Shown piece after piece: positions 1-206 of a DNA stretch of 206 nt. The translations under genes were made by a program, and so were the position numbers. How positions within the stretch are numbered: position 1 is the stretch's first letter; the number at the start of each line of letters is the position of its first letter. Origin of the DNA: Escherichia coli (GTDB taxonomy: Bacteria; Pseudomonadota; Gammaproteobacteria; Enterobacterales; Enterobacteriaceae). The notes under the pieces are model-generated. The model was not told the DNA's origin. It did not search any database and worked only from the letters and a program-made list of their open reading frames with translations. The DNA lies in NCBI RefSeq assembly GCF_003334255.1, contig NZ_QOWU01000284.1, one strand, 5' to 3'.

Positions 1-206
1 TTCAACCGGCAGGTGCCGATCAGCCCGTACAACAGTGCACCACGCTCGCCGCCGTGATCGCTACCGAAGAACACGTAATTTTTCTTTCCGAGACAGACTG
101 CACGAAGCGCTCTTTCCGCTGTGTTATTGTCCGCCTCCGCCAGACCGTCATCACAGAAGTTGCACAACGCAACCCAGTGCTTCCTGATATACCGGAACGC
201 ATCTCT
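1..206 (-). CDS. IS66-family transposase (TnpC/orf3-type DDE transposase), internal fragment; partial at both ends. Codon phase: first complete codon is 206..204, last complete codon is 5..3.
   Basis: Seen in sequence: the reverse-complement frame starting at position 206 has 68 sense codons with no stop and no Met, translating to RDAFRYIRKHWVALCNFCDDGLAEADNNTAERALRAVCLGKKNYVFFGSDHGGERGALLYGLIGTCRL. Established knowledge: the blocks DNNxAERALR, G(K/R)KN(W/Y)xFxGSDxGGER and LIGTC are conserved in the C-terminal part of the catalytic region of IS66-family transposases. No homology search was run. The gene is conventionally called tnpC in three-ORF IS66 elements, but I cannot identify the specific IS, so the symbol is left empty. 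Confidence 0.85.
1..206 (-). mobile_element. Internal portion of an IS66-family insertion sequence; element ends, inverted repeats and target-site duplication lie outside the window.
   Basis: Inference from the transposase CDS spanning the window. No terminal inverted repeat or direct repeat is visible in the window, so completeness and boundaries cannot be assessed. Confidence 0.7.

Follow-up and report, generated by a model that had tools for sequence, protein, structure and literature searches.

The flagged block of an ISEc43 fragment is a conserved motif of the IS66 transposase TnpC, at the predicted turn that connects the catalytic-Glu helix to the last core helix

The question raised by this locus is whether a 48-nt block on the minus strand of an Escherichia coli fragment belongs to an IS66 transposase, and whether the AT-rich run that accompanies it is coding or regulatory. 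The stretch of DNA that was analysed, here called the window, is 206 nt long. Direct translation of minus-strand positions 89..42 gave GKKNYVFFGSDHGGER, exactly as the original prediction had stated, and the frame of this peptide was open across all 206 nt (68 codons, no stop; peptide RDAFRYIRKHWVALCNFCDDGLAEADNNTAERALRAVCLGKKNYVFFGSDHGGERGALLYGLIGTCRL). The 68-residue window peptide matched NCBIfam NF033517, 'IS66 family transposase', with E = 3.6e-22 and 79 bits over profile positions 305-371 of 387; this score falls below the whole-protein cut-off of NF033517 only because the peptide is a 68-residue fragment. Two other reading frames in the mechanical ORF list, one of 60 aa on the minus strand (20..202) and one of 50 aa on the plus strand (35..187), were considered as candidate genes. 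Neither matched an NCBIfam family at a threshold as loose as E = 1, compared with 3.6e-22 for the tnpC frame, and RefSeq annotates tnpC alone here; both ORFs were rejected, and the chance that either is a real gene is negligible. As the frame was open and strongly matched while the other ORFs were matchless, we conclude that the transposase frame is far beyond chance.

The original prediction had proposed a nucleotide search as the way to identify the exact insertion sequence. When this search was run using megablast, all 206 nt were 100% identical (206/206) to tnpC annotated as 'IS66-like element ISEc43 family transposase' (WP_000080172.1) in many replicons of E. coli (chromosomes and plasmids) and Salmonella (plasmids); the name ISEc43 rests on the RefSeq annotation. 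Some match to the window was present in 3081 of 5426 complete E. coli genomes, and matches covering at least 80% of the window were present in 559 complete E. coli genomes, with up to 42 places in a single genome. In two copies that were fetched, one from an O104:H4 chromosome (L001) and one from plasmid pO86A1 (L002), the window corresponds to positions 4001-4206 within a minus-strand CDS at 3889-5502. The gene contains 537 codons in both copies and is preceded by tnpB and tnpA. These CDS coordinates place the window at TnpC residues 433-500 and the block at residues 472-487. Over the window, ISEc43 was set apart from its named relatives by 100% identity, compared to 87% for ISEc47 and 83-84% for ISEc23 and IS682. 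The window is almost certainly coding and derives from the middle-to-3' portion of tnpC, which encodes the DDE transposase of the IS66 family element ISEc43. The features on which this assignment and the following sections draw are:

Positions 1..206, minus strand: internal fragment of ISEc43 tnpC, residues 433-500 of 537 plus 2 bases of codon 501, at 100% identity.
Positions 42..89, minus strand: the flagged block G472-R487, GKKNYVFFGSDHGGER, at the C-terminal end of Pfam DDE_Tnp_IS66 (last 15 positions).
Positions 76..89, plus strand: the AT-rich run taatttttctttcc, reverse complement of the Gly-Lys-Lys-Asn-Ty(r) codons GGA AAG AAA AAT TA.

The full-length ISEc43 TnpC protein scored 448 bits against NF033517 (cut-off 180). 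Its Pfam domains were LZ_Tnp_IS66 at residues 60-130, zf-IS66 at 138-182, PF03050 DDE_Tnp_IS66 at 196-486 (E = 1.2e-95) and DDE_Tnp_IS66_C at 494-530; the Pfam accessions matched besides PF03050 were PF13817, PF13007 and PF13005. TnpB scored 119 bits against NF033819, above the cut-off of 50, and TnpA scored 68 bits against NF047595, just under the cut-off of 74. The anatomy of the whole element was read from identical copies elsewhere, as the window itself comprises 206 nt only. The pO86A1 element, one such copy, is complete: it carries tnpA-tnpB-tnpC in 2541 bp with inverted repeats of the GTAAGCG type, its ends read GTAAGCGT… and …ACGATTAC, and it is bordered by an 8-bp target duplication, TATTATTT. 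In PMC6778807, which cites Machida 1984, the IS66 target duplication is reported as 8 bp. The window shares with ISEc43 its sequence over 206 nt, the same 537-residue TnpC, the gene layout, the repeats and the 8-bp duplication, and no difference was detected. The presence of the window in up to 42 places per genome and the clean target duplication are indirect signs that ISEc43 is active in transposition.

Some variation was apparent between the two fetched copies. The left terminal repeat of the pO86A1 copy (6393-6399) is GTAATCG, compared to GTAAGCG in the O104:H4 copy; the TATTATTT duplication of the pO86A1 copy is still clean. The O104:H4 chromosomal copy lies beside pic and is surrounded by fragments of other insertion sequences. 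A 1-nt deletion at about position 5806 makes its tnpB a pseudogene, and its flanks, GGAGTAATAGTC and CCATAGAGGCGG, do not form a matching 8-bp duplication.

Having assigned the window to tnpC, conservation of the block was assessed across the IS66 family. An exhaustive HMMER search of 1.84 billion representatives yielded 43,972 relatives at E <= 0.001, and column counts were made with 116 full-length representatives of at most 50% mutual identity. Within the block, G472, R/K473, N475, F478 and G480 were each at least 90% conserved in the family alignment. The column counts, each out of 116, were:

Position 472: G 106.
Position 473 (K in ISEc43): R 107 and K 5, hence basic in 112.
Position 474: K 95, R 8.
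Position 475: N 109.
Position 476 (Y in ISEc43): W 68, Y 28, F 3.
Position 477 (V in ISEc43): L 90, V 4.
Position 478: F 105.
Position 479 (F in ISEc43): A 62, V 14, F 12.
Positions 480, 481 and 482: G 106, S 86 and D 56.
Positions 484 and 485: G 103 and G 85.
Positions 486 and 487: E 38 and R 63.
Positions 488 and 489, past the block: A 90 and A 109.
DNNxAERxIR signature columns: D458 in 103, N459 in 103, N460 in 101, E463 in 110, R464 in 90 and R467 in 101.

The motif G(R/K)KN(W/Y)xFxGS was present in these 116 sequences at the homologous position, after the helix that carries the catalytic Glu, which bears out the proposal that the block is an IS66 transposase motif. The longer pattern given in the original prediction, G(R/K)KN(W/Y)xF.GS..GGER, held overall except for its final ER, which is far less well kept (E486 in 38/116 and R487 in 63/116). 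The original prediction named Trp and Phe-Ala as the state in other members, and both W476 (68/116) and A479 (62/116) are indeed the majority residues; the commonest core among the 116 relatives was NWLFA, found in 33 sequences. Tyr476 occurred in 24% and Phe479 in 10% of the relatives and, by these counts, both are ordinary minority states. ISEc43 shares with the IS66 family generally (PF03050, NF033517) its domain set, the D/D/E residues, CwAH and the position of G-R-K-N-W-L-F-A-G-S-D-x-G-G, and differs in carrying the minority residues K473 (5/116), Y476 (28/116), V477 (4/116) and F479 (12/116).

The information content of the block was 3.00 bits per column, compared to a protein mean of 1.95, which ranked it 11 of 522 sliding 16-residue windows. 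The top-ranked of these 522 windows, residues 463-478, overlaps the block. By this measure the block is one of the most conserved stretches in the family, and it starts 9 residues past Glu463. The block lies at the end of the Pfam catalytic-domain model, is covered by existing Pfam and NCBIfam models and was already known. The locus adds little as a discovery: it was read correctly, and it comes from a named and abundant insertion sequence.

One association between columns was noted. Phe479 (window 66-68) was more common with Tyr476 (window 75-77) than with Trp476 (7/28 vs 4/68; odds ratio 5.3, Fisher p = 0.013, uncorrected for phylogeny). This pairing may reflect size compensation in the turn or simply shared ancestry.

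The variant found in ISEc43 was then followed among close relatives. Nearly all of about 100 close relatives (~60-100% identity) carry FFG(S/N)DHGG(E/D)R, and they alternate W/Y/F at position 476 and L/I/M/V at position 477. Given this alternation at position 476, Tyr476 is no clade marker. Among named elements, ISEc47, ISEc23, IS682, ISEc22, ISKpn24 and ISKox1 resemble ISEc43 in having FFGSDHGGER followed by GALLY. From these comparisons, FFGSDHGGER is a signature of an enterobacterial group comprising ISEc43, ISEc47, ISEc23, IS682, ISEc22 and ISKpn24, and the variant is usable as a quick marker for enterobacterial IS66 elements of this group. The blocks of the named relatives were:

ISEc43 and ISEc47: GKKNYVFFGSDHGGER, 48/48 nt identical.
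ISEc23 and IS682: GKKNFMFFGSDHGGER, with KNFMFF.
ISEc22 and ISKpn24: GRKNYLFFGSDHGGER, with RKNYLFF and without the AT-rich run.

Nucleotide identity to ISEc43 over the window was 87% for ISEc47, 83-84% for ISEc23 and IS682, and 65-66% for ISEc22 and ISKpn24. The block alone cannot tell ISEc43 from ISEc47 because the exact 16-residue variant, and all 48 of its nucleotides, are common to both. Residues 433-450 of these relatives differ strongly from ISEc43; this segment is specific to ISEc43 and sets it apart from ISEc47, ISEc23 and IS682 (RDAFRYIRKHWVALCNFC vs GEAFSYVLNQWDALCYYS).

Sliding identity along whole elements (L002, L009 and L010) indicated that E. coli IS66 elements are mosaic. ISEc43 and ISEc47 are about 100% identical at element positions 1-1400, 69-87% identical at about 1700-2300 and 95-96% identical after 2320; the low-identity stretch at about 1700-2300 is the part of tnpC that encodes the insertion domain. 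In that same segment ISEc47 and ISEc23 are 94-98% identical, and in tnpA they are only 35-71% identical. The window occupies element positions 2194-2399 and so lies across the 3' boundary of the segment specific to ISEc43.

We next turn to the AT-rich run. The original prediction held that this run is the single AT-rich stretch of the window, which was correct: the window is 55% G+C, and the 16-nt maxima (12/16 AT) all start at positions 67-76. Being the sole AT-rich stretch in such a window, the run at 76-89 could be taken for a functional DNA or RNA signal, i.e. an internal promoter, a terminator or a nucleoid-protein binding site. However, a scan of the window identified no sigma-70 promoter-like or terminator-like site on either strand, a scan of the element for promoters and terminators yielded nothing at the block, and an Rfam scan of the element gave no match. 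Moreover, the run is just 14 nt long and is wholly accounted for by Lys, Lys, Asn and Tyr codons. It is lost in ISEc22 and ISKpn24 despite conservation of the peptide; these elements encode the same positions as GGC CGC AAA AAC TAC (GGCCGCAAAAACTAC), with Lys473 replaced by Arg (CGC). Compared to ISEc22 and ISKpn24, the block contained 7 synonymous and 2 non-synonymous codon differences, and the whole window contained 21-26 synonymous and 21-22 non-synonymous differences (21 and 22, respectively, for ISEc22). The synonymous excess in the block indicates that selection here is on the protein. A functional signal is thus highly improbable, and the claim that the run is coding and not regulatory stands; from the codon comparison, the run is a by-product of the Gly-Lys-Lys-Asn-Tyr codons. 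For annotation, ISEc43 tnpC is the appropriate label for the window, and no regulatory site should be entered for the AT-rich run.

The same codons were also considered as a programmed slippage site, ribosomal or transcriptional, at G AAG AAA AAT that would give rise to a truncated or alternative TnpC. A five-A run is present inside AAG AAA AAT, and, according to PMC3281130, frameshifting is a strategy of the IS1 and IS3 families. However, with a G ahead of AAA AAT, the stretch AAG AAA AAT does not read as a canonical X XXY YYZ heptamer in this frame. In addition, zero-frame family conservation runs another 60 residues, through DDE_Tnp_IS66_C, and the A-run is broken in ISEc22, ISKpn24, ISEc23 and IS682 (AAAAAC). 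The slippery site was rejected on these three grounds, and there is next to no likelihood of its being used.

We also examined where the block lies relative to the putative catalytic residues. In alignment A1 (110 sequences), D268, C355 and H358 were invariant, and D332, E463 and D458-N459-N460 were each at least 90% conserved. The sequence contexts in TnpC are TDDT, LQADAFAGY, GCWAH and DNNTAER. By analogy with D175, D241 and E348 of ISCth4, we assign the DDE triad to D268, D332 and E463, and we take C355-W-A-H358 to be the family CwAH motif; of the triad, E463 alone lies within the window. An AlphaFold2 model of TnpC built on alignment A1 had a mean pLDDT of 93.2 and a pTM of 0.80. In the window region, DSSP assigned helices at 431-441 and 443-451, a helix at 460-475 that carries E463, coil at 476-481 (YVFFGS) and a helix at 482-500; the pLDDT was slightly lower, 88, at residues 471-480. 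The corresponding features of the window are:

Positions 153..206, minus strand: residues 433-450, predicted to hold the two closing helices of the alpha-helical insertion domain (helices 431-441 and 443-451 of the AlphaFold model).
Positions 102..131, minus strand: D458-N459-N460-T-A-E463-R464-A-L-R467, the DNNxAERxIR signature, from column counts in 116 relatives.
Positions 114..116, minus strand: codon for Glu463, the putative catalytic E of the DDE triad, from conservation, the predicted helix 460-475 and the ISCth4 analogy.
Positions 60..77, minus strand: Y476-S481 (YVFFGS), a six-residue turn predicted by DSSP of the AlphaFold model, in the same relative position as loop II of ISCth4.
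Positions 3..59, minus strand: D482-L500, predicted by DSSP as the helix that closes the catalytic core and starts with DHGGER; positional equivalent of ISCth4 alpha13.

The model predicts with high confidence that the block takes in the last turn of the Glu463 helix, then YVFFGS as a turn of six residues, and then the initial turns of the helix that ends the RNase H-like core.

The catalytic-Glu signature DNNxAERxxR (102-131, minus strand), on which the original prediction was silent, precedes the block and has E463 9 residues upstream of it. This signature, with Glu463, is the functionally most important feature in the window. Beta-clamp motifs have been reported for IS66 TnpC upstream or downstream of the leucine-zipper domain; as that domain occupies residues 60-130, these motifs are far from the window (433-500).

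A search of the PDB with the TnpC sequence and a profile search with alignment A1 gave no meaningful match, indicating that by sequence there is no solved IS66 transposase. The closest solved fold to the TnpC model was that of ISCth4 TnpA, an IS256 family transposase (PDB 6xg8, 6xgx). [quoted passage not shown] Loop II spans E348+12 to E348+20. The equivalent interval in ISEc43, E463+12 to E463+20, covers N475-H483 in the middle of the block, with helix 482-500 coming after it. The ISCth4 sequence after the Glu, taken from the PDB alignment and 100% identical to the ISCth4 transposase, is E-SLNSSYRRINK-SRTVFPGDQ-SLLK…; in a gapless comparison anchored at the Glu, K (E+11), F (E+16) and D (E+19) were common to ISEc43 and ISCth4. 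Spacings among the DDE and CxxH residues were also similar (64, 131 and 23 in ISEc43, compared to 66, 107 and 21 in ISCth4).

ISEc43 TnpC and the ISCth4 transposase are alike in having a CxxH-headed helical insertion domain and a loop at E+12 to E+20 that leads into a terminal helix; both the loop and the helix bind transposon-end DNA in ISCth4. They are unlike in several respects. The two proteins are only 13-15% identical and ISCth4 belongs to PF00872, whereas TnpC gave no match to Pfam PF00872 (IS256/Mutator). The IS66 insertion domain is longer than that of ISCth4, with a D-to-E spacing of 131 vs 107 residues, and IS66 differs further in having a zinc-finger and leucine-zipper N-terminus and in needing the accessory genes tnpA and tnpB. 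Alignment of the IS66 profile A1 by hhalign to the ISCth4 sequence (E = 0.15) or to a 22-sequence IS256-type profile, A2 (E = 0.32), was not significant, with a probability below 1%. The match to A2, though not significant, pairs D268 with D175, D332 with D241, and C355/H358 with C262/H265; as the alignment ends before the Glu helix, it offers no means of mapping the block. The basis of the correspondence with loop II is the similar fold and the distance to the catalytic Glu, and the correspondence carries an uncertainty of about one residue.

The fold comparison suggests how the block may function. R/K473, K474 and N475 together with the turn would be the counterpart of ISCth4 loop II, and the following helix would be the counterpart of alpha13. 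The basic and polar residues of the block and its turn would contact transposon-end DNA, with G472, G480, G484 and F478 providing a tight turn and hydrophobic packing that would hold the element touching the DNA in a fixed position relative to the catalytic Glu. By analogy with ISCth4, we consider the chances of such a DNA-contact role to be evenly balanced.

The main rival explanation is that the block is purely structural, its conservation reflecting only folding and the positioning of Glu463. The most conserved residues are Gly472, Gly480, Gly484 and Phe478, along with the small residues A488 and A489, a pattern typical of tight turns and helix packing; the Gly/Phe pattern is equally compatible with helix-turn-helix packing as with DNA contact, and the dip in pLDDT is only slight (88 at 471-480). 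On the other hand, residues 473-475 are polar or charged and nearly invariant (R/K473 basic in 112/116, K474 with 95 K and 8 R, N475 in 109), which is not expected for a buried packing element, and the corresponding position in ISCth4 contacts DNA. We therefore regard a purely structural role as rather unlikely. Taken as a whole, the explanation that fits best, and that is very probably correct, is that the block is a conserved tnpC motif at the junction of the Glu helix, the turn and the final helix, with a candidate role in DNA contact. A search of the literature identified no mutagenesis of the motif, nor any other experimental study of it.

As the resemblance is at the level of fold and no match was found at the level of sequence, TnpC may work like a transposase of the IS256/Mutator family without being a member. 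Extended to mechanism, the ISCth4 analogy would have IS66 TnpC acting through asymmetric dimers with delivery of the tip in trans, possibly by copy-out/paste-in with a circular intermediate, and the block would be the equivalent of loop II. We offer this broader scheme only tentatively. For the IS66 family (~44,000 representative clusters), the PDB searches yielded no solved structure, and the searchable literature yielded no mechanistic study. The motif and the catalytic-Glu helix form the most conserved stretch of this very large transposase family without a solved structure, and the confident model, by tying the motif as a candidate counterpart to the DNA-bending loop of the IS256-family enzyme, makes it a concrete target for mutagenesis.

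Two further observations concern regions outside the window. In the AlphaFold model, the N-terminus of TnpC is predicted to form two very long helices (3-73 and 77-98) extending into the leucine-zipper domain, and a low-confidence linker at about 100-120 lies between these helices and the zinc-finger beta-sheet region. At the right end of the pO86A1 element, a strong hairpin at 3859-3891, TAAGCGTCAA…TTGACGCTTA, begins at the tnpC stop codon and ends with the element's final base, with a folding energy of -17 kcal/mol (z = -5.2 vs shuffles). This hairpin was not found in ISEc22 or ISKpn24 and is identical in ISEc43, ISEc47, ISEc23 and IS682; it could be a structure at the 3' end of the transcript or a dyad symmetry in the transposase-binding end.
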